This document shows, one piece after another, positions 8,140 to 53,956 of a stretch of 64,000 nucleotides of DNA. The notes under the pieces are model-generated. The model had not been told where the DNA came from, did not search any database, and saw only the letters and a list, made by a program, of their open reading frames with translations. Both the position numbers and the translations under genes were made by a program. Source of the stretch: an uncultured bacterium (GTDB lineage: Bacteria; RBG-13-66-14); NCBI GenBank assembly GCA_964577465.1, contig CAZNZF010000002.1, positions 1,336 to 65,335 on the forward strand. Reading direction: 5' to 3'. Numbering within the stretch: the first letter of the stretch is position 1; every line of letters begins with the position of its first letter.

Positions 8140-8358
8140 GGTCGCCTCCTCCGGTATGATTTATGAAAATTCGCTCTTCTACTAATCCTATATATATTAT
8201 AGTTAATTGTACTGTCTTTGTCAAGGCGAGCGGCTGGGGGACGGGTTTACGAGGGATTTAACAGGTTTACAATAATATGACTTATAATAAGTGTATGATA
8301 AGGTGGTTATTCGTTTAGGTCGCGTGTCCTTGGTCGGGCTGTCCGTGAGCGGCGGGGT
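8140..8358. promoter_or_regulatory. AT-rich divergent promoter/operator region between padR and the ABC transporter genes
   Basis: ~200 bp at much lower GC than the surroundings, between divergently oriented genes. Contains A/T tracts and short repeats (TTTACGAGGGATTTAACAGGTTTACAATAAT). Confidence 0.4.
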
Positions 8359-9351
8359 GTGACCTTGATGGGAACCGACGTCATCGAGGTATCGGGCTTG
8401 GTAAAGCACTTCGACGACCTCGTCGCCGTGGACGGCGTCAGCTTCGCGGTGCCTGCGGGTGAGGTCTTCGGCTTCCTGGGCCCCAACGGGGCCGGAAAGA
8501 CGACCACCCTTTCTATTCTGGCGACGCTGCTGCGGCCCACCTCCGGGTCGGCCAGCGTCGCCGGGTGCGACGTGCTGGAGAATCCCGCCGGCGTGCGGCG
8601 CGAAATCGGCATCGTGTTCCAGGAAAGCTCCCTGGATATCAAGCTCACCGCCCGGGAGAACCTGGACTTCCACGCCCGCATCTACGGCGTGGGCGACCGG
8701 AAGAAGCGCGTGGCCGAGATGCTCGCCTTCATGGAGCTTTCCGAGTGGAGCGATAAACTGGTGGAGCGGCTCTCCGGCGGCATGCGGCGCAGGTTGGAGG
8801 TGTCCCGGGCCCTGCTGCACCGGCCCCGGGTCCTGTTCATGGACGAGCCCACCCTCGGCCTCGACGTGCAGAACCGGCGGAAAATCTGGGACTACCTCCT
8901 CGAGGGTGCCCGCGTGGACTCGACCACCGTTTTCCTGACCACCCACGACCTCCACGAGGCGGAGCGGTGCCACCGGGTGGGGATTATCGACCGGGGCCGT
9001 CTGGTCGCGTGCGGTACACCCGCCGAGCTTAAGTCCTCCCTAGGGGGGAGCGTGGTCCGTCTGCGCTGCGCGGACCCACAGGACGCGGCGCGGACCATCA
9101 TGTCCACCACGGGGCTGGAGGCCAAGCTGGAGGGCGGTTCCGTCGTGGTGGTGGTGGATTCACCGGCGGAATTCCTGCCGGAGGTCATGCGGCTCTTCGG
9201 CGACGCCGTCGAGGAAATCCGGGTCGAGGAGCCCACCCTGGAGGACGTGTTCCTCGGCCTCACCGGCCACACCCTGCGCGACGACGAGGAGCGGGGTCAG
9301 GGAGCGTGGCGGACGGCCCACGCCGCCACGGCCAGGAGGGACGTCCGATGA
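8359..9351 (+). CDS. ABC transporter ATP-binding protein (ABC-2/DrrA-like exporter)
   Basis: Walker A GPNGAGKTT, signature LSGGMRRRL, Walker B LFMDEPT. Confidence 0.9.
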   Translation: MTLMGTDVIEVSGLVKHFDDLVAVDGVSFAVPAGEVFGFLGPNGAGKTTTLSILATLLRPTSGSASVAGCDVLENPAGVRREIGIVFQESSLDIKLTARENLDFHARIYGVGDRKKRVAEMLAFMELSEWSDKLVERLSGGMRRRLEVSRALLHRPRVLFMDEPTLGLDVQNRRKIWDYLLEGARVDSTTVFLTTHDLHEAERCHRVGIIDRGRLVACGTPAELKSSLGGSVVRLRCADPQDAARTIMSTTGLEAKLEGGSVVVVVDSPAEFLPEVMRLFGDAVEEIRVEEPTLEDVFLGLTGHTLRDDEERGQGAWRTAHAATARRDVR

Positions 9352-35982: not shown

Positions 35983-36594
35983 CTAGGGCAGGAAGACTTC
36001 CACGTCCAGCACCTCGTTGGTGTCCGTGTCCACGGCCACGTTCGCCTGACCCTGGAAATCCTCGGGGACGAAAACGAGAGCGCACCAGTTGGTGGTGCCG
36101 GGGAAGTCGTCCCCGTCGTAAGGCTCGACGACCAGGCTCCGTGGAATCCAATCGGGGTAGCCCTCATCGGTCAGGGCGGCGGCGGCGGCCTCCACCCAGG
36201 GCCCGGCGTCGTCATAGTCGGGCAGGCCCACCAGGGGAAGGCTGGAATCGGTTTCCCACTGCGCGTCGGTCGAACCGTCGTACTGGACCACTACGATCAG
36301 GACGTCCTCGTCGGATCCGCCCGGGAGCTCGGCGTAGTAGAACTGCCAGGGCAAGTTCTCCTCGGGCTCGCCGTCATCGGTTACATCGATGCAAGCGATG
36401 TTGAACAGTTCGCCGTCGGGCATCTCCGCGTCGCGGACGGCGTCGGCCAGGTTGATACCCCAGCCGAGGCCGTGGCCGTCCCCATCGCCGTCCCCATCAC
36501 CGCCTCCGTCTCCCGTGGAGCTGGCACAGCCCGCAACGAGGGCCAGAACGAGGGTGCAGAGCAGTGCGAGGAGGGTTTTTATCGAACTTCTCAT
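35983..36594 (-). CDS. Hypothetical acidic lipoprotein with (GD)n low-complexity linker
   Basis: Lipobox LVAGC. A GDGGGDGDGDGDGHG run encoded by tandem hexanucleotide repeats. Confidence 0.55.
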   Translation of the reverse strand: MRSSIKTLLALLCTLVLALVAGCASSTGDGGGDGDGDGDGHGLGWGINLADAVRDAEMPDGELFNIACIDVTDDGEPEENLPWQFYYAELPGGSDEDVLIVVVQYDGSTDAQWETDSSLPLVGLPDYDDAGPWVEAAAAALTDEGYPDWIPRSLVVEPYDGDDFPGTTNWCALVFVPEDFQGQANVAVDTDTNEVLDVEVFLP

Positions 36595-36722
36595 GATCGG
36601 ACCTCCTTGGGTTGGTGGTTTGAAAATTACTTAATTATACAGCCGGATTGGTCCGTTTTCCATTTACGGTTCTATTTTCACCTGACTGGTACGGGGGTAA
36701 CCTTTGGTACGTCGGGCGGACA

Positions 36723-36932
36723 CTACCCGCCCCCCTCCAGGTAGCCGTTGAGCCAGCCGATGATTTCCTCGATTTGGTTGGGCCGGTAGCGTTTGGTCGA
36801 CAGGAGCTCGCCCACGGTGCCGGGGAAGACCTCGTTGCAGCGCAGGCATATGATGCCCCGCTGCTGGAACCAGTCGGCGGCCTTGGGGTGGTCCGCGATG
36901 ACGGTCTTGACCGGTGTGTCCTTGGTCACCAT
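36723..36932 (-). CDS. DUF1858 domain protein (hybrid-cluster-protein-associated redox disulfide domain)
   Basis: HPKAADWFQQRGIICLRCNEVFPGTVGEL...IIGWLN matches the DUF1858 pattern. TGATG overlap with its upstream paralog. Confidence 0.7.
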   Translation of the reverse strand: MVTKDTPVKTVIADHPKAADWFQQRGIICLRCNEVFPGTVGELLSTKRYRPNQIEEIIGWLNGYLEGGG

Positions 36933-37144
36933 CACTCCGCCTTCTCCAGGAATGCGTTCAGCTCGGCGACGATTCGCTCCACGTCCGCCGTCGAGTGCCC
37001 CTTGTTTCCCAGAAGCTCGGCCAGGGTGCCCCAGAAGGGCTCGCCGCAGCGCAGGCAGACGATCCCCCGCGCCAGGAGCCAGTCGGCCGCCGCCGGGTGC
37101 TCCTCCAAAAGCCGTTCCACGTTGATTTCCCCGTTCAGTACCAC
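36932..37144 (-). CDS. DUF1858 domain protein (paralog)
   Basis: HPAAADWLLARGIVCLRCGEPFWGTLAEL...IVAELN. Confidence 0.75.
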   Translation of the reverse strand: MVLNGEINVERLLEEHPAAADWLLARGIVCLRCGEPFWGTLAELLGNKGHSTADVERIVAELNAFLEKAE

Positions 37145-37199
37145 ACCTGGACTTTACCACGGGCGGGACCGCGCCGCAACCGGTCGGATGTTTTTGTGC

Positions 37200-37231
37200 A
37201 AAAAAGCCGACCCGAGGGCCGGCTTCTTCTA
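37200..37231 (-). terminator. Rho-independent terminator downstream of bacterioferritin-like gene
   Basis: On the minus strand: GAAGCCGGCCCTCGGGTCGGCTTTTTTG. Confidence 0.55.
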
Positions 37232-37241
37232 CGGTTCGTCG

Positions 37242-37793
37242 TTACCTGAGGAACTTCGAGACGAAGGGCGAGGTCTCGCCGCGACGCATGAAGTGTCCCG
37301 AGGGCCCCTCGCCTAGAAATTCCGAGAACCAGGACTCGTGCTCGATTTCCTCGTTGAGGATGGCCAGGACCAGGTCGTAGGTCCGGTGGTCCTTGCCCGC
37401 GGTCATGTTGCAGATTGCGGTGTAGCCTCGGACGGCGCAGCGTTCCGCCTCCACGAGCACCTTCAGGATGGCATTGACGTCGGAGGTGTCTTTGGGGAGG
37501 TGGGCCGGGGGGCAGGCGGAGAGGTCGTGGAATTTCTTCATGTCGTCGGGCAGCTTGCCGCCCAGCTCGTAGATGCGCGGGAACAGCGCTTCGAAGTGGT
37601 TGCGGTCCTCGACCCGGGCCGTCTCGGCGATTTCCTTCAGGGTCTCGCCGTCCAGGCCCGTAAGGTTGGACCGCAGGATGGTGTAGTAGTAATAGGTGGT
37701 GAGCTCGGCGGCGGCGTTTTTCACCAGCAGGTCCAGGAGCTTGTCCACGTCCACGCCGGCTTTTTCCACCATCTCTCTGGCGACTTTGGCCAT
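37242..37793 (-). CDS. Bacterioferritin/ferritin-like diiron protein
   Basis: Ferritin-like four-helix pattern with E..H motifs (ETARVEDRNHFEAL...; LNEEIEHESWF), resembling Bfr ILRDEEGHIDWLE. Confidence 0.65.
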   Translation of the reverse strand: MAKVAREMVEKAGVDVDKLLDLLVKNAAAELTTYYYYTILRSNLTGLDGETLKEIAETARVEDRNHFEALFPRIYELGGKLPDDMKKFHDLSACPPAHLPKDTSDVNAILKVLVEAERCAVRGYTAICNMTAGKDHRTYDLVLAILNEEIEHESWFSEFLGEGPSGHFMRRGETSPFVSKFLR

Positions 37794-37799
37794 GGTTTA

Positions 37800-37990
37800 T
37801 CCTCCATTACGGTTGGGGTTTTTTCTTGACGACTGGAGCCACGGCAAAAGTATAGCGTGTTTGTCATATAAATGCATAATAAAATGCGAATAATATAAGT
37901 CATAATATAAACGATTATGGTTAATTGCAACTAATTCAATAACATGATGATACGCTTGCATTAAACACTGAGTAAACACCAAGCGGCTTG
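37800..37990. promoter_or_regulatory. Strongly AT-rich intergenic island upstream of bacterioferritin-like gene (candidate promoter/operator)
   Basis: ~190 bp at roughly 25-30% GC within a ~65% GC genome. Contains direct repeats AATGC(A/G)(T/A)AATAA and the imperfect flanking inverted repeat GTGTTTGTCA / TGAGTAAACAC. Confidence 0.4.
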
Positions 37991-38104
37991 TTGAGTAGTA
38001 GCGGGGTCGCTGTCCACGCCACTTGGTTTCCTCTGCGCGGGAGTACCGTCATTTTGCTAAAAAAACCCAGTTTGAGTGCCCGAAAGTCGGTGGTGATAAT
38101 TCTC

Positions 38105-38135
38105 GAAAAAGGCCGCCCGGTGGCGGCCTCGAATC
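38105..38135 (-). terminator. Rho-independent terminator downstream of superoxide reductase gene
   Basis: On the minus strand: GAGGCCGCCACCGGGCGGCC followed by TTTTTC. Confidence 0.55.
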
Positions 38136-38149
38136 ACTCGGAGGTTCCG

Positions 38150-38548
38150 CTACGCCAGCTCCACCCGCTTGCTCGATTCCCACAGGCCGTGGATGTTGCA
38201 GTAGGCGAGCGCGTTGAGCGTGCCGGCCTTGGCGGTCTTGAAGGAGAAGGTCGCCTCGTGGTGGGTGTACACCGGCCCGGTGTTGGGGCCGTCGGTGGAT
38301 TCGCCGTGGGCGTTGAACTCGAAAGTGCCCAGGTCGTAGGCGAATTTCGCGCCGTCCGGCACGAAGAACGCCTGAATCCACCGGATGTGGTGCTCCGTGG
38401 TGTTGGGGTGGGCGATTTCCTTGCCCAGGGTCACCGTAACCGGCGTGAACTCGCCCGGTTTGACCTTGTCCGGGCAGGTTATGACCGGCACGTGCTTCTC
38501 CTGCTTCCAGTCCGCCGACTGGATTTTCTCGGCTATGCGTTCGGCCAT
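38150..38548 (-). CDS. Superoxide reductase (1Fe-SOR/neelaredoxin type)
   Basis: EKHVPV motif and C-terminal CNIHGLWES. 132 aa with no desulforedoxin domain. Confidence 0.85.
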   Translation of the reverse strand: MAERIAEKIQSADWKQEKHVPVITCPDKVKPGEFTPVTVTLGKEIAHPNTTEHHIRWIQAFFVPDGAKFAYDLGTFEFNAHGESTDGPNTGPVYTHHEATFSFKTAKAGTLNALAYCNIHGLWESSKRVELA

Positions 38549-38584
38549 CGTGAGCCTCCTTAAATTACCAGGCTCGTTTTTCTG

Positions 38585-39082
38585 TCAACCTTTTTTCAGC
38601 AGCAGCTCCAGGTCCGCCAGGACGGATTCCAGGTCGTCCTCGTGCTCGACCTCGTCGGCGAGGATGCCGAGCAGCATGTGGTAGGTTATGGGGTCGGCGT
38701 CCTTGACCAGGGCGGTGAGCTTCTGATAAACGCCGATGGCGCATCGTTCGCCCTCTATGTTCTGCTCCAGGATTTTGCGGACGAACGGGTCGGCCGGGGG
38801 GTCGTAGCCGCAGTTGGTGATTTTGTACCACTCCTCGGGCTTGAGCACCGGCGTGCCGCCGAGCTGGAGGATGCGGTCGGCGATGAGCCCGGCGTGCCGG
38901 AGCTCGTCGTCGGCGTGCTCGATGAGCTCGTCCATGGCCGCCTCCCGCAGGGGACCCTGGACTACCTTCGCCCCGAGCCAGTACTGGTAGTAGGCCAGCC
39001 ACTCGTCGGCCAGGGCGCGGTTCAGTTCCCCGATGAGCTTGGGAACGTCCATGCCGACTATCTCGGTGCCTTTTTTACCCAT
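38585..39082 (-). CDS. Bacterioferritin-like diiron protein (paralog)
   Basis: LNRALADEWLAYYQYWL...DELIEHADDELRHAGLIADRILQLGG...ILADEVEHEDDLE closely parallels bacterioferritin motifs. Confidence 0.7.
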   Translation of the reverse strand: MGKKGTEIVGMDVPKLIGELNRALADEWLAYYQYWLGAKVVQGPLREAAMDELIEHADDELRHAGLIADRILQLGGTPVLKPEEWYKITNCGYDPPADPFVRKILEQNIEGERCAIGVYQKLTALVKDADPITYHMLLGILADEVEHEDDLESVLADLELLLKKG

Positions 39083-39154
39083 AGCGACTCCTTTTTTCTA
39101 TTGGGTTTTCCTGCGGATGAAAAACGGGCGCTGCTCGCCGTCGCGCGGTTCCGG

Positions 39155-40807
39155 TCAGGCGTCCAGCATCGGCATCTTTATGCCGAATTTTTTCGCGTTT
39201 TCGATGGCCCGGGGGTAGCCGGCGTCGGCGTGGCGGACGATGCCGAGGCCGGGGTCCGTGGTCAGCACGCGGGACAGGCGCTCGTCCATTCCCGGCGTGC
39301 CGTCGGCGACGATGACCATGCCGGCGTGCTGCGAGTAGCCCATGCCCACCCCGCCGCCGTGGTGGACGCTGACCCAACTCGCCCCGCCCACGGCGTTTAA
39401 GAGGGCGTTCAGGAAGGCCCAGTCGCTCACGGCGTCGGAGCCGTCGGCCATGCCCTCGGTCTCGCGGTTGGGGCTGGCCACGGAGCCGCAGTCCAGGTGG
39501 TCGCGGCCGATGACGATTGGGGCCTTCAATCGGCCGTCGCGCACCATGTGGTTGATTTCCAGGCCGAATTTTTCGCGGTCGCCGTAGCCCAGCCAGCAGA
39601 TGCGGCAGGGCAGCCCCTGGAAGCGGACCTTCTCCCGCGCCTTTTTTATCCAGCGGGCCAGGGCCTCGTCCTCCGGGAAGAGGCGCAGGACCGCCTCGTC
39701 GGTGGCGTGGATGTCGGCGGGGTCGCCGGAGAGCGCGGCCCAGCGGAAGGGGCCCTTGCCGTCGCAGAACAGCGGTCGGATGTAGAGCGGGACGAAGCCC
39801 TGGATGTTGAAGGCGTCGGGCGCGCCGCGGTCCACCGTCTGGCCGCGGATGTTGTTGCCGTAGTCGAAGGCTACAGCTCCCGCTTTCTGCATCGCCAGCA
39901 GGGCGTTCATGTGGACGACCATAGCCGCCAGAGAACGTTTCTTGTACTCCTCCGGGTTTTTCTTCCGCAAGGTCTGGGCCTCCGCGAGCGGCATCCCGTT
40001 GGGGACGTAGCCCGAGAGCTCGTCGTGGGCTGAGGTCTGGTCGGTGAGCACGTCCGGCGTGACCCCGCGGCGGACCAGCTCCGGGTGTACGTCGGCGCAG
40101 TTGCCCACCAAGCCGATGGAGAGGGGCTCGCCCTTTTCGGTGAACTCCTCCACCAGCCGCAGCGCCTCGTCCAAATCGGTGACCATGCGGTCGCAGTAGC
40201 CGGTGGCCAGGCGCTTTTCGATTCTGGCCGGGTCCACCTCCACGTCCAGGCAGACCCCGTCGTTCATGGTGACCGCCAGGGGCTGGGCGCCGGACATGCC
40301 GCCCATGCCGCCGGTCAGGACCCATCTCCCCTTGAACGAACCGCCGAAGTGCCGGCGGGCCAGCTCGGCCAGTGTCTCGTAGGTCCCCTGGAGGATGCCC
40401 TGGGTGCCGATGTATATCCAGGAGCCGGCGGTCATCTGGCCGTACATCATGAGGCCCTTGGCCTCCAGCTCGTAAAAATGCTCCCACGTCGCCCACCGGG
40501 GCACGAGGTTGGAGTTGGCCAACAGGACGCGGGGAGCCTCCTCGTGGGTGGTGAAGACGCCCACCGGCTTGCCCGACTGGACGAGGAGCGTTTCGTCGTT
40601 CCCCAGGGTGCGCAGGGTCTTCAGTATCGCCTCCAGGGACTCCCAGTTCCGCGCCGCCTTGCCCGAGCCGCCGTAGACGATGAGGTTGGCCGGGTCCTCG
40701 GCCACGGCGGGGTCCAGGTTGTTCTGGAGCATCCGGTAGGCGGCCTCCTGGTGCCAGCCCCGGCAGTTGAGCTTGGTGCCCGTGGGGGCGTGCAGTTCGC
40801 GCGGCAT
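39155..40807 (-). CDS. hutU: Urocanate hydratase
   Basis: 550 aa. Highly conserved urocanase sequence ([38 protein letters not shown]). Confidence 0.9.
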
Positions 40808-41106
40808 GTTCCGTCCTCGGTTGAGGTTTGACGGCGGCGGTACGACCGACCCTCAAAATAGCACAGAGCCGGTCCCGTCTCAAGGGCTAAAGGGCCGCTC
40901 CGATTCGGGAATCCGGCTTTTTTTTATCGTTTCAGGGAAGGGCGGTGTCTCGAATCGCCGGGTTTTCCTCCCCGGTAAAACCCATTTGTGATAGTATAAA
41001 GCACAGTCGGATTGAGCCGGACTGCCGCTCGCAGAAAGGCGCCCCGGCCGGGACGCGGAAAAAGAAGGCGCCGACTACGACTACCGTCCAGGCGGTGAGG
41101 TGAGGC

Positions 41107-42762
41107 GTGGCTGAAACCGGTACCCTGACGGACGGCGTGAAGCGCGACCGGATTTTCTGGTGGGCGCTGTTGGCCCTGGAGGTTTTTTTCTGCGTCGTCA
41201 TCCTGGGCGACCTGAGCAACTACACCATCGATGACGGCTACATCTATCTGAACGGCGCCCGGCAACTGGCCCGGGGTGAGCTGCCCAACATGACGCCGGG
41301 CGAGGCCCCGACCGACGCCTGGGGCAGTTACCTGTGGCTTTTAATGCTCACCCCCGCGTACCTGTTGGGAGCGAATCCCCTGTTCTGGGCCAAGGCGCTG
41401 GGGTTCCTGTTCCTCCTCGGCGGGGTGTGGTGGATTTCGCTGCTTTTCAGGCTCTGGCGTCCGGCGATGAGCCGCTTGGAGTCACTGGCGCTGGCCGGTT
41501 TGGTGCTGGCCTTCGTCCCGGCGGTTTACGGGTCGGTCAACGTCCTGGAAACCGGGTTCCACCTCTTCGCCCTCCTCACGGCGCTTTACCTGTTGGTGCG
41601 CGATGTCGCGAGGAAGAGGCCCGGCCTGCCGTTCGGCCTCTCGTTGAGCCTTCTGCTCGTCAGCCGCCCCGACGCCTTCATCGAGGTAATCCTCTTTCTG
41701 GCAAGCTATCTCTGGCTGTCACTCCGGCGCGAGTCGCCCTTCATCAGGCGTGACGTGTGGCGACCGTTTCCCGGCCTCGTTCCCGGCATTCTGTTCTGGG
41801 CGGCGATAGTATTAATTTACGGCACCCTCCTGCCCACCAGCGCGCTGGCGAAGACGCCGGCTTTATCCTTCCTCCTGTCGTTTGTATGGCTGCGCAATTT
41901 CGAAGGTGCCATCGTGGAGATGGCATACACGCCCGTCCTGGCACCCGCCATCATCGGCGCCTTCGTGTTCATTTTCCGCCGGAGGGGTGAGAAGCCGATC
42001 CCGCCCATCCGCTTCCTCCTCGCCGCCATCATCCTCTGGGGGCTGGCGGAGATGATGGTGATAATGGACTGGACCATGGTGAACCGGCTGTGGGTCAGCA
42101 AGGGGGTGATGGCCATAGCCTGTTCGACGCTGCTGCTGTACGATCTGGTCGAGAAGCTGCATTCCCGGTTCATCGCCGCCACGCTTTTCTGCATCGGGCT
42201 GATGGGGGGCCTGTGGGGGTGGCGGTTCCACGTGTTCAACTACTTCGACAAGACCCACTGTCCGGCCCGGGTGATGGGAGAGCTCATCAATGAGCTGAAG
42301 CTGCCCGATTCCTGGCTGGCGACGCCCGACATGGGTATATTGCCGTACCGGGGCGACATCCCGACCGTGGATACCTGCCTGTCCCCGGTGTGCAGCCGAT
42401 ACATGCTCGAACACCCGGAAGATGTGGATTACGTCTGGTCGCACAAGGTGGATTTCGTGGTGATCTGTTCGATCTACATGAATCCGGCGGAGGCGGGGGG
42501 CGTTCGCTTCGGTATTCCCGACTTCATGTACAAGAGTGATTACTTCGTCGAGCACTTCCGGCCGGTGATGGTGGCGGAGGGGGCCGTGCCCTTGACCCTG
42601 GACTATTATTGTGAAAACCTGGGGCACTACTTCCACCTCTACGTTTCCGACCGCATCGACTACGATGCGCCGGCCCCCGTGCCCGTTTACCTGCGCGGGT
42701 TGGCGGCGCTACCGGTGCATTACCCGTATCTCAATCTTGTCATAGGGGATTGGATGCGGTAG
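41107..42762 (+). CDS. Polytopic membrane protein, GT-C glycosyltransferase-like architecture (paralog 1 of 3)
   Basis: ~13 TM helices. Conserved first-loop motif DDGYIYLNGARQLARGELP. C-terminal ~165 aa soluble domain (DSWLATPDMGILPY...VWSHKVDFVV...YFHLYVSDRI). Confidence 0.6.
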   Translation: MAETGTLTDGVKRDRIFWWALLALEVFFCVVILGDLSNYTIDDGYIYLNGARQLARGELPNMTPGEAPTDAWGSYLWLLMLTPAYLLGANPLFWAKALGFLFLLGGVWWISLLFRLWRPAMSRLESLALAGLVLAFVPAVYGSVNVLETGFHLFALLTALYLLVRDVARKRPGLPFGLSLSLLLVSRPDAFIEVILFLASYLWLSLRRESPFIRRDVWRPFPGLVPGILFWAAIVLIYGTLLPTSALAKTPALSFLLSFVWLRNFEGAIVEMAYTPVLAPAIIGAFVFIFRRRGEKPIPPIRFLLAAIILWGLAEMMVIMDWTMVNRLWVSKGVMAIACSTLLLYDLVEKLHSRFIAATLFCIGLMGGLWGWRFHVFNYFDKTHCPARVMGELINELKLPDSWLATPDMGILPYRGDIPTVDTCLSPVCSRYMLEHPEDVDYVWSHKVDFVVICSIYMNPAEAGGVRFGIPDFMYKSDYFVEHFRPVMVAEGAVPLTLDYYCENLGHYFHLYVSDRIDYDAPAPVPVYLRGLAALPVHYPYLNLVIGDWMR

Positions 42763-42908: not shown

Positions 42909-43487
42909 ATGTACCGTCATATTCTGCTGATATTAATCGTGTTTGCATCGTTCGCCTCCGCCGAGGTCCTCTTTTTCGAGGATTTTTCCGACGGCGGAAT
43001 GCCCGGCTGGACCCAGGACCCCGGTGAAATAGGACAACGCTGGATAGTCAGCTCACAGCACTTCTTCAGCGGTCCCTTCGGCGTTATTTGCGAAAAGGGT
43101 CGGGACCAGGATGAGCGGCTGATTTCACCAGGCATCTGCCTCACATCGGACGTGGTAATCGACTTCTACTGGGCCACGAGCTACACCTGGTTCGTTTCCC
43201 CCCACGACAACGGGGACTACAGCCTGGAGATTCGCGAGGCCGGTGGACCGGGCGAGTGGTCGGAAATCTGGAACGAGGCGGAGTTCGGGTCGTTCGAAAA
43301 CTGGGTGTGGAACGAAACCAAGGTCGGGATTGGCGGTTACTGGGACGGCCACGACGTTCAGTTCGCATGGCGTGTCGTCTCCGACAAGGCCGCCGACGTT
43401 TGGCTCGACACGATTACGGTTACCGCCGGTGATTCTTCGGACGTCCAGGAGACGAGCTTCGGGGTCATCAAGGCCACCTTTCGCTGA
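42909..43487 (+). CDS. Small secreted protein of unknown function
   Basis: Signal peptide MYRHILLILIVFASFASA. 192 aa, Trp/Asp-rich. Own promoter and RBS. Terminator at 43503-43531. Confidence 0.55.
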   Translation: MYRHILLILIVFASFASAEVLFFEDFSDGGMPGWTQDPGEIGQRWIVSSQHFFSGPFGVICEKGRDQDERLISPGICLTSDVVIDFYWATSYTWFVSPHDNGDYSLEIREAGGPGEWSEIWNEAEFGSFENWVWNETKVGIGGYWDGHDVQFAWRVVSDKAADVWLDTITVTAGDSSDVQETSFGVIKATFR

Positions 43488-43641: not shown

Positions 43642-45420
43642 ATGGCCGCTGTTGAAGCCGAATTGACGGACCGGACTAGGGGGACCCGGTATCTCACCTG
43701 GGGCCTCATCGCCCTCGAACTCGTCCTGTGCGCCTTCATCGTCTGGGACCTGTCCGGATACACCCCCGACGACGTCTACATCTACCTGAACGGGGCCCGT
43801 CAACTGGCCGGCGGTCGACTACCGAGCATGACGCCGGGCGAGGTCCCCACCAACGCCTGGTCCAGCCTTTTGTGGGTGGGGCTTGTCACGCCGGCCTACT
43901 GGCTCGGCGTCGACGCCCTGGTCTGGGCCAAGGTGCTCGGTTTCATCCTGCTCCTGGGAATCGTCTGGCAGATTGCGCGGATAATCGGGCTCTTCCACCC
44001 CAAGCTCGACCAGGCGACCGTCTGGGCCGTCGCCGGGCTGGCGCTCACCTACATGCCGCTGGTCTTTTGGGCCACGAGCGGCATGGAGACTATTTTCTAC
44101 GTCTTCAGCCTGGTGTTGGTCTTCCGCCTGCTCCTGAGGGACACTTCGCAGAAACGGCTGTCCGTGGGCCTGGGGCTCGCCCTGTCGGTGCACCTGGTCA
44201 CCCGGCCCGACGCCTTTATCAACGTGGCCCTCGTGCTGATGCTCCTGGTGGTTCTCGTGTTGAATCCCCGGCGGACCTATTCCTGGTCGGGTCTTGTGCG
44301 CCCCGCCCTCGGTCTGCTTCCGGGAATCGTGCTGTTCCTCCTGCCCGGCCTCTTCTACCCGACCGTACTTCCGACCAGCGCCCTGGCGAAGGCCGGCGTT
44401 ATAGGCCCCCTCTTCAATGACCAATTCTGGTGGAACTTCCGCGAACTGGTCCTGAACTTTTCGCTCACGCCGGGAAATATTTTCATCTTAGCCGGGATGC
44501 TTATATTTTTATTCTGGCGCCGCCAGCGGGGTGACCTGAGCTGCGGCTGGGAGATGCGGGTCTTCGTAGTCCTGTTGGTCGCGATGCACCTGGGCGAAAG
44601 GGTGCTGGTGAGTGACTGGATGGCGGTTCAGCGCCTGTGGCTGGAATCGGCGGTAATCGCGCTCGTCGTTTGTCTTTTGGCGTTCATCCGTCTGATGGAA
44701 AAGAAAAAATATCTCTTGATATCCGCCATTATTCTGTGCGGCAGCCTGGCGGCGGGGCTGCTCGGTTGGCGGATGTTTATCTTCGACTTTTTCCACCACC
44801 CCGGCAATCCCGCCGAGGTGATGGCGCAGTTCGTGGGCGAGCTGAAGAGGGACGACTCGTGGATGATCACCACCGATATGGGTGTCGTGCCCTATTTCGC
44901 CGAAATCAATACGATAGACGCCGAAGCCGTTCCCATATGCAACTATCACCTCATGAAAATGCCGAATGACCTCGCCTACGTGTGGAGTCATCAGATTGAT
45001 TTCATCGTCGTCACCTCTCCCTGCCTGACTGCGCCCCGACCGGAAGCTACCCAGTACCGCCTGGTGAGGGACATAATGAGCCAGAGGTACTTTCGGGACA
45101 ACTACCGCCACGTGTTGAGCGCCGTGTGGGCCTCACCGTTCAATCACGGGCACGGGACCCTGCGGTCGTATCCGGGCAGGTACTACCACCTGTTCGTCTC
45201 GAATCGGATTGAATGCGACCTGCCCAGCCCCCCGATCCTGTTGATGAAGGATATTTACCACACGCGACCCATTGCCGCGGAAGTCGTCCTGCCCGTGGAG
45301 CTCCCACCGGCGTACACCGAAAACGGCGTCGTTCCCGCCGTCCCCGACGAGCCGCTGCCCGGGTATTTTGTCCCGTCGAATCCGGGAACCGACCGTCCCG
45401 GTGACTCCGCCTCTCCTTGA
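43642..45420 (+). CDS. Polytopic membrane protein, GT-C glycosyltransferase-like architecture (paralog 2 of 3)
   Basis: DDVYIYLNGARQLAGGRLP; LVTRPDAFI; YPTVLPTSALAK; DSWMITTDMGVVPY...VWSHQIDFIVV...YHLFVSNRI. Confidence 0.6.
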   Translation: MAAVEAELTDRTRGTRYLTWGLIALELVLCAFIVWDLSGYTPDDVYIYLNGARQLAGGRLPSMTPGEVPTNAWSSLLWVGLVTPAYWLGVDALVWAKVLGFILLLGIVWQIARIIGLFHPKLDQATVWAVAGLALTYMPLVFWATSGMETIFYVFSLVLVFRLLLRDTSQKRLSVGLGLALSVHLVTRPDAFINVALVLMLLVVLVLNPRRTYSWSGLVRPALGLLPGIVLFLLPGLFYPTVLPTSALAKAGVIGPLFNDQFWWNFRELVLNFSLTPGNIFILAGMLIFLFWRRQRGDLSCGWEMRVFVVLLVAMHLGERVLVSDWMAVQRLWLESAVIALVVCLLAFIRLMEKKKYLLISAIILCGSLAAGLLGWRMFIFDFFHHPGNPAEVMAQFVGELKRDDSWMITTDMGVVPYFAEINTIDAEAVPICNYHLMKMPNDLAYVWSHQIDFIVVTSPCLTAPRPEATQYRLVRDIMSQRYFRDNYRHVLSAVWASPFNHGHGTLRSYPGRYYHLFVSNRIECDLPSPPILLMKDIYHTRPIAAEVVLPVELPPAYTENGVVPAVPDEPLPGYFVPSNPGTDRPGDSASP

Positions 45421-45607
45421 GAGCGTGCCGCCCGGCGGCGCGCGATGACCGGCGGGGTTGGGCGGAGGCCGCTTGCCGACGAATCGAGCCCGAGGGCGGG
45501 ATCTGCAGCCCTTTATTCGCGGCTCCTTCAACAACGGGATGGACCGCCTCTTTTGGGCGTGTTCTAACGTGTTACAATTACCGGAGTGTCCACGCGGGAG
45601 ACGGAAA

Positions 45608-47242
45608 GTGCGTCTACTGTCCGCGGTCCGGGAAATCCGGGGCATCTGGTGGCTGGTCATCGCCGTGGAAATCGGCCTGGCCCTCGTCGTAATTTACGAG
45701 CTGGGGGCCTACTCCTTCGACGACGCCTACATCTACCTCTCGGGGGCGCGGCAGCTTTCGCGGGGCGAGTTGCCCAACCCGAGCGCCGGCGACGGAAAGC
45801 TCCCCACCAATTCCTTCTCCAGCCATCTATGGCTTCTTCTGCTGGCCCCCGCCTTCTGGCTCGGCATCCAACCGCTGGTCTGGGCCAAGGCGCTGGGCTT
45901 CCTGTTTCTCCTCCTGTCGGTGTTCCAGGCCGCGGGGATTCTGCGCCGACTGCGACCCACGTTCTCCCACGGTTCATCCCTCGCCCTGGCCGGGGTCTTC
46001 CTCGTCTTCACCACGTCGCTCCTCGGTTCGGTGAACGGCCTCGAGACGGCGCTGAACCTCTTCTCCATCCTCCTTCTGCTCCGCTTCGCGCTCCGGGATT
46101 TCCTGCGCGACAAGCTCAGCACGGCCCTGGGCCTGGCCGCCGGGTTGCACCTGGTCACCCGGCCGGACGCCTTCATCGACCTCGTCGTGCTGGGGATCGT
46201 CGTCGGCTGGTGCTGGGCGTCGAAGCGGTCGGGCATCGGCTGGCGCGACGTGCTGCGGGTCAAGCTGGGAGCGCTTCCCGGCCTGGTTTTCTTCGTCGCC
46301 GTGGCGCTCGTCTACTGGCAGATTCTGCCCACCAGCGCCGGGGTGAAGGTTCCCGCGTTGGAGGTGATGTTCAGTCTCTGGGGCTTCAAGGAGGGCTTTC
46401 TCCGGGTCTTTTGGGATTTTATCCGCACGCCCGGCCTCGCCCTGGTTTATGCCGGTTTCATCTACTTCCTGGTCCGGCGCAGGAAGGGGGGGGAGGACGG
46501 GAGTGGTGCGGAACGGACTCCACGGCTGACCACCCCTCTCCGGCTGCTCCTCGTCGGGCTGGCCCTGGACCACCTCGGCGTCCTGTTCTTTGCCGGCGAC
46601 CCCATCGGAGTGGGCCGCCTGTGGCTCCCCTCGGCCGCCACGGCCCTGGTTTGCACCCTGGCAGTGCTTCCCGCGTTCTTCCACCGGCGCCGGGGGCTGG
46701 CCGTCGGCACCCTCCTGCTCGGTTTCACCCTCTGGGCCGGATTTCTGGGCTGGTGGTCCTACGTGGTTTACCACTACAACCACCCCGGCTCGCCCGCGGA
46801 GCGGCTTGGGGAGTTCATCGCCGAGACGAAGCTCCCCGACTCCTGGCTGGTGACCATGGACATGGGGGTCGTGCCCTACTTCGGGGACCTTCCGACCATA
46901 GATTCCCACGACCGCCCCAAGTGCAACCGGTACCGGACGGCGAATCCCGGTGACCTGGACTACATCTGGCAAAAACCGGTGGACTTCGTGGTCCTCATCA
47001 CCCAGACGCCCGAGCCGGAAACGGGCTTCATCTACCACGGCGTCAATCAACATCTCTCCGCCGACGAGTGGTTCGACCGCTTCCGGGAGGTGCTGGTCGC
47101 GGAGTGGCGTCCGCCGGTGAATCTCGATTCTCTCCTGAGCAACGCCGGTCGCTACTTCCACCTCTACGTCTCGGATAGAATCCGGTGCGGAATCGAGGAG
47201 CCGATTCTGCTGCTGCGCGGCATTCCCGAATCGGGGCTGTGA
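45608..47242 (+). CDS. Polytopic membrane protein, GT-C glycosyltransferase-like architecture (paralog 3 of 3; alternative ATG start at 45539)
   Basis: DDAYIYLSGARQLSRGELP; LVTRPDAFI; ILPTSAGVK; DSWLVTMDMGVVPY...IWQKPVDFVV...YFHLYVSDRI. The GTG start was chosen by alignment to the paralogs. Confidence 0.55.
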   Translation: MRLLSAVREIRGIWWLVIAVEIGLALVVIYELGAYSFDDAYIYLSGARQLSRGELPNPSAGDGKLPTNSFSSHLWLLLLAPAFWLGIQPLVWAKALGFLFLLLSVFQAAGILRRLRPTFSHGSSLALAGVFLVFTTSLLGSVNGLETALNLFSILLLLRFALRDFLRDKLSTALGLAAGLHLVTRPDAFIDLVVLGIVVGWCWASKRSGIGWRDVLRVKLGALPGLVFFVAVALVYWQILPTSAGVKVPALEVMFSLWGFKEGFLRVFWDFIRTPGLALVYAGFIYFLVRRRKGGEDGSGAERTPRLTTPLRLLLVGLALDHLGVLFFAGDPIGVGRLWLPSAATALVCTLAVLPAFFHRRRGLAVGTLLLGFTLWAGFLGWWSYVVYHYNHPGSPAERLGEFIAETKLPDSWLVTMDMGVVPYFGDLPTIDSHDRPKCNRYRTANPGDLDYIWQKPVDFVVLITQTPEPETGFIYHGVNQHLSADEWFDRFREVLVAEWRPPVNLDSLLSNAGRYFHLYVSDRIRCGIEEPILLLRGIPESGL

Positions 47243-49456: not shown

Positions 49457-52207
49457 TTACCGGGCGATGATGAACCGCTGGGTGAGCACGCCTTCATCAG
49501 CCACCAGGCGGATGATGTACACGCCCGCGCTGGCACTGTTGGAATCCCAGGCCAAGGTATGCCGGCCCGCGGTCAGCTCGCCGGTCTGGATGGTGGAGAC
49601 GCGGCGTCCGGCCAGATCGAAGACGGCCAGCGTCACGTCCTGCGTCTCGGGCAGGGTGAAGGCGAAGTTGACCCTGCCGGATGTCGGGTTCGGGAAGGGA
49701 CTCTCGAGCGCCAGGGCCATGTCGGCGGTCGGACGGTATGACGCCTCGGCGGGGCCGTAGGAGACCGTGGTTCCGTCGGGTTTGATGGCCTCGATGTAGT
49801 AGTCGTAGTCGCCTTCCGCGGGTCGGTCGAGCCAGGCTCCGATGGTGCCGCCCTGGAGCGATTCGGTGTTGAGGCGGAGCCTTGAGCTGTCGCCTTGCTC
49901 GGCGCGGTAAATGTTGAAGCCGGCAAAGCCGGAGTCCGCGGTCCAGGTCAGCATGACGCCGTCCGAGGTGATTTTGGTTTCGATGGCGACCCAGGAGGCA
50001 CTCTCTTCGGGCACGCTCACCTGGATGTCGTCCACGTACCAGCCTTCGTTCGTTATATCATCGGAGTCGGAGACGAACCGGAATCGCAGTTGCACCACCG
50101 TGTCGGCGTAGGCGGTCAGATTGAGTACCCACTCCTGCCACGTGTACTGGGTGCCGTCGTGATTTTTTATCTGGAGCCAGCCGGAGCCGTCGTTGATATC
50201 GACATAGCCCATGTCTTGAGCGAACTGCAGCTCGTACCAGGTCCAGTAGCGCAGCTCCGCGGCGGCGGGGTTGATGTACACCGGCGGCGAGTAGAGGCAG
50301 GCGTTGATGTCTTTGACGTAATCGTCGCTCCCCATGCCCCCGCATTTCCACGAGTGTGAGGGTGAGTGCGAGCGGTAGTCGTCGACGTGCCATGCGTCGT
50401 TGTCGCCGTTATGGGTCCAGTACCACTCACCGCTCTCGACGTCGTCGTCTATCATATCGGCCGGCGAGAAGAGGGTGAAGAAGAGGTCCTGGGAGTCGAA
50501 GCCCTGGGATTGCACCGTCAGGGTGAACTCGAAGGAGTTGGGGGACCCGGACCCGGCGCTCACGTCGAAGCCGAAGGTGGAGGAACCGGAGTCGCCGGCG
50601 GGGATGGTGCCGAAATCTCCGTCGCCGTCGGTGATGGTGACGTCGGGGCTGGAGCAGGTGAGGGTGCCCGTGGTGCTCGGACCGGAGCCCTCACCCACGT
50701 TGTTGATGGTCACCTCGATTTCGATGGACTCACCGGGCTCGATGAGGCCGTCGGAGTCGGTGTCCGAGGTGACGGCCACGTCGCCGAGCTCGAAGCTGGG
50801 CTCCTCGGGGGACGGGGTCAGGGATTGCACCGCGGCCAGGACGTCTATGCGTCCCGAGCCGTAGTCGTTGTCCTTGCCCGCATCACCCAGGTCGATGGCG
50901 GTGTCCTCCAGGACCTGTTTCAGCTCCGCGGGGGTCAGCGTGTAGTCGGCGTCCAGCAGGAGGGCACAGGCGCCGGCGACGTGGGGGGTCGCCATGGAGG
51001 TGCCGTTCCACCCGTCCTGGTACGCGGTGTCCGAGGAGACGTAGCAGCTCTTGATGTTGACGCCGGGGGCGGACACGTCGGGCTTGATGCAGTCTTCGCT
51101 GCCCCATTCGTCGGTGGGGCCGCGGCTGGAGAATCCGGCGATGACATCGCCGGAGTCGGTGGCGCCCACGGTGATGACTTCGGGCACGTTGCCCGGGGTG
51201 CGCAGCGTCATGGGGCCGGGCCCCTCGTTGCCGGCGGCGATGACCAGGGCGGTGCCGGCGGCGATGGCGTTCTGGGCGTTGGTGCGCCACGTGGGCTTAT
51301 CCGGATTCCAGGAGTCGATCCAGCCCAGGGAGTTGGAGACCACGTCCGCGCCGAAATCCACGGCCCCCTGCCAGGAGGCCCACACGGACAGCTCGCCCTG
51401 GTGGTTGCCGTACATGTAAAGGCGGTGGGCGCCGTAGTTGTATTCGGGCGCCACGCCGGCCTGGGTCCCGGCGGTGCCGTCGGAGCCCACGCTGCCCGCG
51501 CAGTGCGTGCCGTGCTCCTCACCGGACGAGAAATAGGGGTCGGGGTCGTTGTCCGCGTAGTCGTAGCTGATCGAGGGGTCGTAGTGGCTGGCGAGGTCGT
51601 GGTGTGTGTAGCGCTGGCCCGTGTCTCCGATTACTACGGAGACGCCCGCGCCGGTGTAACCCAGGTCCCAGACGGCGGGGGCGTTGACCTTATCCACCCC
51701 CCAGGCGATCTCGCGGCCGTTGTCGTACACGGTGAGGGGTTCGGCGCTCTCGCCGGCCTTGAATCCGAGCCCGATCCACTGACCGTCGCCGTCGGCGCCG
51801 CGGGTGATGCGGGCCACCTCGGGCCGTTGGGCCACCTCGAGGATGGCCTTCGGGGTCAGCTCGGCGTAGACGAAGTTGGAGATCCAGAACGGGCGGTAGG
51901 CGCCCACCGAACCGTTGGTCTGGTTGGCGGTCAACCATCGCAGCAGGCCCTCCTGCTCGGTCGAGGCCACGTTCTTGAGCCAGCCGGTGACGGCCGCCCG
52001 GGCCTCGTCCCGCGTGCGGCCCAGCCAGAGTTGGGCCGTCGTCGCCCGGTCGAGCTGGGTCTGCAGGGTGATGTAGCAGGGGAGCAACTCATTATCGGTG
52101 CTCGTGGCCACGTAGCCCTGGAGGTAATCGGTTAGCTTGGCCTCGGGCTCCACGGCCATGGAGCTGAAGGCTAAAACTAATGCCAACAATATCAATATCT
52201 TCCGCAT
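49457..52207 (-). CDS. Secreted subtilisin-like serine protease (S8) with C-terminal T9SS-type sorting/FlgD-Ig-like domain
   Basis: Signal peptide MRKILILLALVLAFSSMA. Catalytic triad motifs VIGDTG, HGTHCAG, GTSMATPHVAG. C-terminal TLAVFDLAGRRV...GVYIIRL typical of a Por-secretion CTD. Confidence 0.8.
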   Translation of the reverse strand: MRKILILLALVLAFSSMAVEPEAKLTDYLQGYVATSTDNELLPCYITLQTQLDRATTAQLWLGRTRDEARAAVTGWLKNVASTEQEGLLRWLTANQTNGSVGAYRPFWISNFVYAELTPKAILEVAQRPEVARITRGADGDGQWIGLGFKAGESAEPLTVYDNGREIAWGVDKVNAPAVWDLGYTGAGVSVVIGDTGQRYTHHDLASHYDPSISYDYADNDPDPYFSSGEEHGTHCAGSVGSDGTAGTQAGVAPEYNYGAHRLYMYGNHQGELSVWASWQGAVDFGADVVSNSLGWIDSWNPDKPTWRTNAQNAIAAGTALVIAAGNEGPGPMTLRTPGNVPEVITVGATDSGDVIAGFSSRGPTDEWGSEDCIKPDVSAPGVNIKSCYVSSDTAYQDGWNGTSMATPHVAGACALLLDADYTLTPAELKQVLEDTAIDLGDAGKDNDYGSGRIDVLAAVQSLTPSPEEPSFELGDVAVTSDTDSDGLIEPGESIEIEVTINNVGEGSGPSTTGTLTCSSPDVTITDGDGDFGTIPAGDSGSSTFGFDVSAGSGSPNSFEFTLTVQSQGFDSQDLFFTLFSPADMIDDDVESGEWYWTHNGDNDAWHVDDYRSHSPSHSWKCGGMGSDDYVKDINACLYSPPVYINPAAAELRYWTWYELQFAQDMGYVDINDGSGWLQIKNHDGTQYTWQEWVLNLTAYADTVVQLRFRFVSDSDDITNEGWYVDDIQVSVPEESASWVAIETKITSDGVMLTWTADSGFAGFNIYRAEQGDSSRLRLNTESLQGGTIGAWLDRPAEGDYDYYIEAIKPDGTTVSYGPAEASYRPTADMALALESPFPNPTSGRVNFAFTLPETQDVTLAVFDLAGRRVSTIQTGELTAGRHTLAWDSNSASAGVYIIRLVADEGVLTQRFIIAR

Positions 52208-52406
52208 GGAGCCCCCATTGGCTTGTGTTTCGTTATCGTTAAGGTTGGCCTGAGTAAAGCTACAACCTTCACCAGCTAAACTAGCGGAAAAAATCCTAAT
52301 TGTCAAATTTAACTTCGAGCGTGAAAGGATTGATAGCTCTGCCTTTTGCCGATGTATCACCCCGGAGATAAAGAGAGGTCCTTATTATTGAACGCAAGAT
52401 ACGTGC

Positions 52407-52453: not shown

Positions 52454-53755
52454 TTAATCGCCGCCGGCGCTGGCGATGCGCTCCAGCTTGCTCACCAGGG
52501 CGGCCGTATCGGCGTCGTTTTCCACCACGTCGCGGATTTTATTGTAGCTGTGGATGACGGTGGAGTGGTCGCGTCCGCCGAACTGGAGCCCGATTTCGTG
52601 GAGCTTCGCGTCGGTCAGGTTTCTCGCCAGGTACATGGCCACCTGCCGCGGGAAGACGACCGAGGCGTTGCGCGTTTTGGACAGAAGCTCGCCCAGCGCC
52701 ACCTCGAAGTGGTCGCAGACCACCCGCTGAATCGTACCGATGGAGACCCGGGGGGTCTCGCGGCCGAGGATGTTGGACAGAACCTCGCGGGCCATCTTGG
52801 CGGAAATCGGCTGCTCGCTGATGGCGCTGAAGGCCGACAGCCGCAGAATCGCCCCCTCGATGGTGCGGATGTTCGACCGCACCCGCTGGGCGATGAGGTC
52901 GACCACCTCGTCGGGAAGGTGGATGCCCTCGTTCTCGGCCTTGGCCTGGATGATGGCGATGCGGGTTTCGATGTCCGGCGGTTGGATGTCGATGAGCAGG
53001 CCCCATTCGAAACGGGTGACCAGCCGTTCGTCGAGCTTTATCTCCGCCGGCGGACGGTCCGAGGTGAATACGATCTGCTTCGAGTTGTTGTACAGGGTGT
53101 TGAAGGTGTGGAAGAGCTCCTCCAGCGTAGCCTCTTTCCCGGCCAGGAACTGGAGGTCGTCGATTAAAAGGATGTCCAGGTTGCGGTACTTGGCCCGCAG
53201 GTCCGAGGAGCGGTCGTAGCGGATGGCTTCGATGAACTCGTTGGTGAACTCCTCGCTGGTGACGTAGGCGGTGCGCAACTCCCTGCGCGACTGGAAGGAT
53301 TCGTGGCCGATGGCGTGCAGAATGTGGGTCTTACCCAGCCCCACGCCGGCGTAGATGAAGAGCGGGTTGTAAATCTGGCCGGGCCGCTCGACGACGGCCT
53401 GGGCTGCGGCGTAGGCGGTGGAGTTGCCGCGCCCGACCACGAAGCTCTCGAAGGTGTACTTGGGGTTGTACGGGTTGCGGGGCGAGATCGGCTTCTTCCC
53501 CCCTCCGTTGTTCCGGGCCACCAGGACGACCTCGAGGTCGCGGCCGCAGACGCTCGCGAACTCCCCCGTTATCTGCTCGAGGTAGGTCGAGCCCAGCCAG
53601 TCCACGTAGCGCTGGTTGGGCACCTCGAGGGTGACGAGGTCCTCGGTCAAGGCCCGGGGCTTTATGAGGGAGATGTAGGATTTGTAATGGTACGGGTCTA
53701 TTCGGGGCTTCAGGTTCCCGGAGACCTGGGCCCAGAGGTCCTTAAGCCGGTCCAT
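52454..53755 (-). CDS. dnaA: Chromosomal replication initiator protein DnaA
   Basis: AAA+ Walker [11 protein letters not shown], Walker [10 protein letters not shown], sensor and domain IV motifs. The start was chosen at MDRLKDLWA. Confidence 0.92.
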
Positions 53756-53850
53756 GATCCTGTGTCCGTTCGTCGTTTGCCGGTTGACGCCGATTGGGGG
53801 ACGGGTTGATTGAGGGGGGGATTGCGTATCGGCTTGCCGCGTCGCGCAAT

Positions 53851-53956
53851 TTGTCCACAAAAACCGCGGACTGTATTTTTGGGTGACTCGTGGCTTTATA
53901 TGGGCCGGGTGCGGAGGCGTGGGGAGTTGTCAACCAAGAGTCGCACGTTATCCACA
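53851..53956. promoter_or_regulatory. DnaA-box region upstream of dnaA (candidate oriC / dnaA autoregulatory region)
   Basis: Perfect DnaA box TTATCCACA at 53948-53956. One-mismatch box TTGTCCACA at 53851-53859. AT-rich stretch in between. Confidence 0.45.

Follow-up and report, generated by a model that had tools for sequence, protein, structure and literature searches.

Why should a gene for urocanate hydratase (hutU) stand in line with genes of oxygen defence? The question is raised by a minus-strand locus on contig CAZNZF010000002.1 of an uncultured sediment bacterium, of which a stretch of 64,000 nucleotides (nt), called the window below, was analysed. Six genes follow one another here, namely hutU, a first ferritin-like gene (DPSL-1), a gene for a superoxide reductase (SOR), a second ferritin-like gene (DPSL-2) and two genes for small CxxC proteins, which we call smA and smB (Table 1). 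The preliminary description of this DNA had placed six minus-strand genes in series, and the listing of open reading frames (ORFs) and the codon-position GC content confirmed this. All six ORFs are well formed at the boundaries first proposed for them, and their third-position GC content of 0.87–0.93 corresponds to a host-like codon bias. We compared the locus with related and comparison contigs (labelled L001–L051) and with database proteins (labelled with P-numbers). The region is probably a modular, lineage-specific locus for oxygen stress and iron detoxification in an uncultured Coatesbacteria-like anaerobe, and the adjacency of hutU is then a matter of inherited gene order. The locus would consist of four units, i.e., hutU, DPSL-1 with SOR, DPSL-2, and smA–smB, and hutU would share no pathway with the antioxidant genes beside it. 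The antioxidant part is ordinary, being built of well-known families in a combination that is unsurprising for an anaerobe. The remaining curiosity is the uncharacterised CxxC pair with its ancestral coupling to hutU.

The two ferritin-like genes had been described as bacterioferritin-like. Their membership in the ferritin superfamily was borne out by profile searches, with PF00210 matches at E 1.4e-28 for DPSL-1 and 1.6e-22 for DPSL-2 in a Pfam scan that covered about 60 ORFs of the window, and the failure of these searches that had been named beforehand as a refutation did not occur. The bacterioferritin (Bfr) identity, however, does not hold. The TIGR00754 (bfr) model gave 36.6 bits for DPSL-1 against a cut-off of 125.55 bits and did not match DPSL-2. 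We aligned both proteins with the structures 2vzb and 7stw and with Escherichia coli Bfr, and found that the column of the Bfr haem ligand Met52 is occupied by Leu in DPSL-1 and by Arg in DPSL-2. The ferroxidase ligands are kept in both proteins: the columns contain E27, E60, H63, E112, E144 and H147 in DPSL-1 and E30, D63, H66, E117, E149 and H152 in DPSL-2, which completes the di-iron pattern Glu; Glu/Asp-x-x-His; Glu; Glu-x-x-His. Both also have a cysteine pair, C91/C114 in DPSL-1 and C94/C119 in DPSL-2, which aligns with the pairs of 2vzb and 7stw. The motif that defines thioferritins, or DPS-like (DPSL) proteins, is a pair of conserved cysteines located between the ferroxidase centre and the surface; these proteins prefer H2O2 as oxidant, and the role of their cysteine pair is an open question (PMC12532284). 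The missing haem ligand and the cysteine pair identify both proteins as DPSL thioferritins.

The closest solved relative of DPSL-1 is 2vzb (E 1e-41, 46% identity), which we take to be the Bacteroides fragilis DPS-like protein (the ‘bfr’ gene product), since the search output names the molecule and not the organism. DPSL-1 stays below the cut-offs of all NCBIfam DPS and Bfr models, so its clade is not covered by those models. It resembles the B. fragilis DPSL in its ligands, its cysteine pair and its similar length, and like that protein would at first sight be annotated as a bacterioferritin, but it sits in an operon with a one-iron (1Fe) SOR. DPSL-2 exceeded the cut-offs of two curated models (NF009990, 327.8 bits against 158; NF040955, 304 against 250) and matched 7stw over its full length (E 4e-74, 66% identity). 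We take 7stw, deposited as ‘DNA protection during starvation protein’, to be the Pyrococcus furiosus DPSL, because its Cys94/Cys118 numbering fits that in PMC12532284; 2clb is presumably the DPSL of Sulfolobus solfataricus. DPSL-2 shares with archaeal DPSL the ligand pattern (Glu, Asp-x-x-His, Glu, Glu-x-x-His) and the Cys94/Cys118-type pair, but its host is a bacterium, and its gene shares the locus with a bacterial-type DPSL gene and with SOR. From the 46% and 66% identity to structurally characterised DPSL, we infer that both proteins form dodecameric cages and prefer H2O2. Sharing 32% identity and falling into different clades, DPSL-1 and DPSL-2 are by this comparison old paralogues of B. 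fragilis type and archaeal type, which rules out a recent tandem duplication.

Orthologues of DPSL-2 with 85–88% identity were found in TA06, WOR-3, Sumerlaeota, Anaerolineae, Heimdall-, Bathy- and Promethearchaeota and others (P0175–P0278). This distribution points to extreme conservation, to frequent horizontal transfer among sediment anaerobes, or to both. In the three contexts examined (among L044–L051), these orthologues stand alone, with neither SOR nor DUF1858 neighbours. Those of TA06 and Heimdallarchaeota adjoin a gene for a Fur-family regulator, unlike DPSL-2 of the window, which has no adjacent Fur/PerR-type regulator. The third lies between a cation-efflux gene and a sulfur-transport gene. 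Two of the three contexts have a Fur-family neighbour, and two of the three have a metal transporter neighbour (Zip or cation efflux).

The third antioxidant protein proved to be the canonical 1Fe-SOR that it had been proposed to be. It matches PF01880 (E 7e-33) and exceeds the cut-off of TIGR00332 (105.5 bits against 61.9), whereas the two-iron model TIGR00320 (dfx) reached 40 bits against 146.9, and the N-terminal desulforedoxin domain is absent. Full-length matches were obtained with 2amu from Thermotoga maritima (E 2e-49) and 1do6 from P. furiosus (E 6e-44). Residues E17-K18-H19, H47, H53, C117 and H120 align with both structures and provide the four His and one Cys ligands and the E-K pair. 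The protein thus has the metal ligands, the E-K-H motif and the full length of the P. furiosus and T. maritima 1Fe-SORs. It differs in its setting, as no rubredoxin, rubrerythrin or NROR-type gene is found near it and it is paired with a DPSL instead; in P. furiosus, SOR is clustered with rubredoxin and rubrerythrin.

The SOR gene, which has a Shine-Dalgarno sequence of its own, starts 36 nt 3' of DPSL-1, and a strong terminator closes the unit. The short gap and the position of the terminator suggest that DPSL-1 and SOR form a bicistron. In the proposed scheme, SOR would reduce superoxide to H2O2, and the DPSL dodecamers, with their preference for H2O2 in oxidising Fe(II), would then store the iron as a mineral. 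As SOR yields H2O2 and DPSL favours H2O2 as the oxidant of Fe(II), the pairing would make biochemical sense, and the known biochemistry of the two families suggests that superoxide, peroxide and free iron could be removed in sequence without release of O2. The reading of these genes as a defence set against O2 and reactive oxygen species is well founded for the DPSL–SOR–DPSL part. Very close relatives, with hutU genes 93–96% identical, differ in whether they have SOR. In the contigs without SOR (L006, at 8955–9332; L012, L023 and L025), the same terminator hairpin stands directly 3' of DPSL-1, which indicates that a single SOR ORF was cleanly gained or lost inside a predicted transcription unit.

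The terminators reported after SOR and after the second ferritin-like gene were both recovered, judged by fold energy against shuffled sequences and by their U-runs. The one after SOR contains a perfect 8-bp inverted repeat, and the fold of the one after DPSL-2 was matched by none of 200 shuffles. Both hairpins are conserved in relatives, the former also in relatives without SOR. The AT-rich island in front of DPSL-2 is likewise real in the GC profile, with a GC content of 0.42–0.46 at 37650–38099 against 0.60–0.70 in the flanks, and of 0.39–0.46 over the island proper (37794–38103) against about 0.65. Six sigma-70-like sites were found in the 5.5-kb region, where 0.7 is expected by chance, and three of the six lie inside the island on the minus strand. 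The island of the window clade is about 300 nt long, and its conserved blocks, TGACTTAnAtTATTCGC, a TAATGTAATTACA-like block and GCTATACT, are common to six related contigs. DPSL-2 would thus be monocistronic, with the AT-rich promoter island upstream and a terminator of its own, and would probably answer a different signal from that of the DPSL-1/SOR unit.

The DPSL-2 promoter of the sister clade (L008, 9292–9325; L011, 9287–9316) differs from this island in being short and GC-normal. A perfect inverted repeat, AACGCATCA-N16-TGATGCGTT, spans its -10 element and looks like an operator candidate. This palindrome does not occur in the cluster region, and the sole half-site in the window is at 63256. 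No Rex box (TTGTGAAN4TTCACAA, up to three mismatches) was found anywhere in the window, no PerR box in the AT-rich island (the one match in the window is at 8282), and no obvious operator common to the window and the upstream regions of the DPSL-2 orthologues of other phyla. Rfam gave no match at gathering thresholds over the whole window, nor at E≤1 over 36500–41100, and no tRNAs were found in the window. A gene for a Rex-type redox-sensing repressor (Put_DNA-bind_N and CoA_binding domains) lies at 4895–5524 on the plus strand, 32 kb from the cluster.

We then return to hutU. The protein has three Urocanase domains (E 1e-60 to 1e-92 in Pfam), and TIGR01228 matched residues 3–547 of 550 with 949 bits against a cut-off of 375, so that it scores as a canonical urocanate hydratase at the equivalog level. 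An exact-match look-up of HutU found none on record. A hutU product acting as a thiourocanate hydratase would have connected the gene with redox metabolism through ergothioneine, but this link was rejected, as HutU stayed below the cut-offs of both the thiourocanate and the S-methyl-thiourocanate hydratase model (NF058530, 685.9 bits against 930; NF058531, 724.5 against 880). The preliminary description had stated that hutU occurs without hutH, hutI or hutG nearby, and this is true locally: no such Pfam families were present among the ORFs scanned, and a six-frame motif scan of the 64 kb was negative. The HutH MIO motif and the HutI motif were absent from both the window and 396 kb of fetched loci, and no hut partners were found within 4–10 kb of hutU in any related contig. 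Compared with canonical hut operons (hutUHIG; Pseudomonas, Bacillus), the locus has in common a full-length hutU equivalog, but hutH, hutI, hutG and hutF are missing within 64 kb here and beside hutU in related contigs, and small CxxC genes follow hutU instead.

Sequences identical to the window were found on short metagenome contigs, and exact matches to DPSL-2 were found only on contigs of 2.7 kb or less. The window is syntenic with long contigs of uncultured bacteria, and the nearest named relatives of these bacteria are Candidatus Coatesbacteria. Because the gene order varies among these relatives (Table 1), the antioxidant genes are, as far as gene order tells, exchangeable cassettes. Neither DPSL nor SOR is found in L014 or L034. 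The smA–smB pair is present in close relatives of the window clade and in L014, where smB starts 2 nt after smA, and it is reversed in L013, L030 and L031; L015 and L016 hold only smA, and L034 holds only smB plus an smA remnant. In every Coatesbacteria-like contig with hutU, a small CxxC gene of the same strand follows it within about 3.5 kb. By this comparison, it is the small CxxC genes, and not the antioxidant ones, that have stayed beside hutU throughout the lineage. A stretch 45% identical to HutU residues 8–91, perhaps a gene fragment, precedes the intact hutU by about 2.3 kb in L006 (4207–4449) and L025 (231–473); no counterpart was found in the window.

The start codon ATG of smB overlaps the stop codon TGA of smA by one base, and from this arrangement the two genes are predicted to be translationally coupled. 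Neither protein reaches the curated cut-offs of DUF1858 (PF08984) or TIGR03980. SmA has no Pfam match and scores 20.2 bits with TIGR03980 against 44.95, and SmB scores 20.5 bits with PF08984 against 32.2 (E 5e-4) and 25.4 bits with TIGR03980 against 44.95 (E 1e-5). However, fold and transitive profile evidence place both in the DUF1858/ScdA_N superfamily, in that PF08984 was matched by 59 of the 73 subfamily members examined; the family profile covers 213 clusters among 1.84 billion representative proteins. The DUF1858 identity proposed for the two tandem genes therefore stands at the level of fold and superfamily, but not at that of the individual Pfam cut-off. The subfamily motif CxxCGEPxWG is nearly invariant (C30, C33, G34, E35 and W38), and differs from CxGC in the DUF1858 proteins 2k53, 2k5e and 2fi0 and from DfCCgG in the ScdA_N domain of RIC/YtfE (5fnn). 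Unlike these references, the subfamily is small and, in the window lineage, comes as two coupled paralogous genes, each of whose sequences falls below the Pfam and TIGRFAM cut-offs.

SmA and SmB are 41% identical, and the coupled pair is kept in relatives of the window clade, which rules out a recent tandem duplication here too. Of the duplications of ferritin-like and DUF1858 genes pointed out earlier, the pairs are thus real, but a recent origin is contradicted for both. P0013 (132 aa) is a natural protein in which two CxxCGEP-type DUF1858 domains are fused in tandem, suggesting that the separate small proteins work as a pair, and we infer that SmA and SmB act together. DUF1858 has CxxU selenoprotein forms (PMC9312934), which by analogy point to a redox-active CxxC motif in SmA and SmB. 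RIC/YtfE combines a related ScdA_N domain with a di-iron four-helix bundle, the two being linked by a channel (PMC9268430). The smA–smB unit would most likely encode a heterodimeric thiol-redox or metal-handling module. Distant members of the subfamily adjoin genes for an aldehyde dehydrogenase (Geobacter), a sortase (Anaerolineae) or an enoyl-CoA hydratase. A universal linkage of DPSL and DUF1858 was rejected on these contexts and on those of DPSL-2 in other phyla.

What the small pair does beside the antioxidant genes can be explained in other ways. A SmA/SmB heterodimer, with its four cysteines, might be a dedicated partner of the antioxidant proteins that reduces the DPSL cysteine pair, handles DPSL iron or feeds electrons to SOR without rubredoxin, an arrangement that would resemble the joining of the ScdA_N domain to a di-iron domain in RIC/YtfE. 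In L015 and L016, about 20–30 nt separate DPSL-1 from the start of smA, throughout the window clade smA is found downstream of DPSL-2, and the six-frame scan of the window found no rubredoxin motif. The channel that links the ScdA_N domain to the di-iron site in YtfE (PMC9268430), the open role of the DPSL cysteines (PMC12532284) and the CxxU forms of DUF1858 (PMC9312934) also speak for such a partnership. However, a strong terminator separates DPSL-2 from smA in the window, no DUF1858 gene stands next to DPSL-2 in the contexts examined in other phyla, the distant small-protein members adjoin the unrelated genes named above, and five contigs (L014, L034, L013, L030 and L031) hold small genes without DPSL or SOR, so we consider a dedicated partnership unlikely. 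The coupling seen in L014, with 1 nt between the hutU stop and the GTG start of smA and with smB following after 2 nt, speaks for a functional tie of the pair to urocanase itself, in which the small proteins would protect, activate or regulate HutU, e.g., through its cysteines or bound NAD+, and the antioxidant genes would be later insertions. L034, where hutU is followed by the smA remnant and an intact smB, and the regular presence of a small CxxC gene within about 3.5 kb downstream of hutU on the same strand in the Coatesbacteria-like contigs agree with this. It is still quite unlikely, since the pair is retained in L013, L030 and L031, where no hutU lies close by, more distant family members do not lie beside hutU, and an order conserved within one phylum can be plain inheritance. 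Moreover, urocanase is not known to have a redox partner, and its NAD+ serves as an electrophile that undergoes no net redox turnover.

The remaining alternative was put forward in the preliminary description, namely that hutU is functionally integrated with the antioxidant genes by co-transcription with DPSL-1/SOR or by a non-canonical use, since the rest of the hut pathway is missing. The spacer between hutU and DPSL-1 measures only 72 nt and contains no recognisable promoter of DPSL-1. The statement that no terminator separates hutU from the ferritin-like and SOR genes is roughly right, as the spacer hairpin folds no better than shuffled sequence (z +0.7) and was not called in the terminator scan, but it is not certain, because a weak hairpin followed by T5 is there and is possibly a leaky terminator. 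Read-through from hutU into DPSL-1/SOR is therefore possible in this genome, and the absence of hutH, hutI and hutG from the window and from the vicinity of hutU in related contigs would agree with an unusual role. As a conserved feature, however, such integration is not supported. hutU has its own promoter-like site and is an equivalog at 949 bits for which both thiourocanate hydratase models failed; one or two unrelated genes intervene between hutU and DPSL-1 in L008, L011, L015 and L016; DPSL-1 has a clear promoter of its own (TTGCCT-18-TATAAT) in L015 and L016; and L014 and L034 carry hutU without DPSL or SOR. The absence of hut partners, in turn, is established only locally. We therefore regard functional integration of hutU as very unlikely.

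The reading that we prefer, a modular oxygen-stress and iron-detoxification locus beside an inherited, canonical hutU that would be expressed from its own promoter-like site, has to be weighed against several observations. All promoters and terminators of the locus are predictions, and the scan for sigma-70-like sites found a promoter neither for DPSL-1/SOR nor for smA/smB, so that read-through from hutU and from DPSL-2 is possible. An electron donor of SOR is not encoded in the window, where the six-frame scan revealed no rubredoxin motif, and no regulator gene was found adjoining the cluster. The direct coupling of the small CxxC genes to hutU in two lineages is a misfit with a purely antioxidant role, and it is from gene content only that the organism is taken to be an anaerobe.

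The chief value of the locus lies in annotation. It implies that ‘bacterioferritin-like’ genes of sediment anaerobes can be DPSL thioferritins, that one bacterium can hold bacterial and archaeal DPSL types side by side, and that a mini-ferritin which consumes peroxide can be coupled directly to SOR. It also contributes one observation on the handling of oxygen by uncultured Coatesbacteria. More speculatively, the CxxCGEPxWG pair could be an undescribed two-subunit redox or iron module, ancestrally coupled to urocanase and recruited beside DPSL/SOR as a reductant of SOR or a partner of the thioferritin cysteines, and would then be a split analogue of the RIC architecture with its ScdA_N and di-iron domains; we give this idea little credence. 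If the pair did work with DPSL or SOR, it would offer an experimental handle on the role of the thioferritin cysteines and also on the purpose of DUF1858 domains.

Table 1. Features of the hutU–DPSL–SOR–smA–smB locus in the window and gene orders in related contigs (promoter and terminator entries are predictions)
Feature or contig	Position	Strand	Description
hutU, urocanate hydratase, 550 aa	39155–40807	-	three Urocanase domains; TIGR01228
DPSL-1, B. fragilis-type DPS-like mini-ferritin, 165 aa	38585–39082	-	PF00210; 2vzb
SOR, 1Fe superoxide reductase (neelaredoxin type), 132 aa	38150–38548	-	PF01880; TIGR00332
DPSL-2, archaeal-type DPS-like mini-ferritin, 183 aa	37242–37793	-	PF00210; NF009990; NF040955; 7stw
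smA, small CxxC protein, 70 aa	36932–37144	-	DUF1858/ScdA_N fold; CLRCGEPFWG motif
smB, small CxxC protein, 69 aa	36723–36932	-	paralogue of smA
Sigma-70-like site upstream of hutU	40855–40883	-	TTGAGA-17-TATTTT with TG; consensus match, predicted
Weak bulged hairpin in the hutU/DPSL-1 spacer	39120–39141	-	ACGGCG-AGCAG-CGCCCGT + T5; read from sequence
Intrinsic terminator closing the DPSL-1/SOR unit	38104–38130	-	stem 38109–38130 + U-run; -25.2 kcal/mol, z -3.1
AT-rich promoter island of DPSL-2	37794–38103	-	sigma-70-like sites; conserved -10-like TATACT at 37849–37854; conserved leader
Intrinsic terminator 3' of DPSL-2	37194–37229	-	stem 37200–37229 + U6; -22.2 kcal/mol, z -3.7
Window, L001, L027			(hutU)-DPSL1-SOR-DPSL2-(smA-smB-lipoprotein); full in the window, L001 and L027 being short contigs that cover part
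L006, L012, L023, L025			window order without SOR; terminator kept directly after DPSL-1
L008, L011			hutU and DPSL-1 separated by a DUF6150 gene, and in L008 also by a 286-aa gene
L015, L016			two unrelated genes between hutU and DPSL-1; DPSL-1 preceded by its TTGCCT-18-TATAAT promoter and followed by smA
L014	2434–2665		hutU-smA-smB only; 1 nt between hutU stop and smA GTG start
L034	5889–5980		hutU, smA remnant (decayed N-terminus VLEKHPSA), intact smB
L013, L030, L031			smB'-smA' (reversed order); no hutU, DPSL or SOR

Some neighbouring genes of the window were also noted. A gene for a predicted lipoprotein of 203 aa (35983–36594, minus strand; no Pfam or NCBIfam match) follows the small CxxC pair in all close relatives, and its promoter-like site at 36634–36662 is the best sigma-70-like site of the region, with 10 of 12 matches. 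On the other side, divergent from hutU, three plus-strand genes (41107–42762, 43642–45420 and 45458–47242) encode large multi-pass membrane proteins of 551–594 aa without a Pfam match. The first two are paralogues with 39% identity and enclose a gene for a 192-aa protein, also without a Pfam match (42909–43487). This divergent arrangement is conserved in relatives. The dnaA gene (52454–53860, minus strand) lies about 12 kb from the cluster, which places the locus close to a probable replication origin. A 967-aa subtilase with FlgD-Ig and Por_Secre_tail domains, the latter for sorting by the type IX secretion system, is encoded at 49457–52360 on the minus strand, as would fit a contig of FCB-related or candidate-phylum origin.

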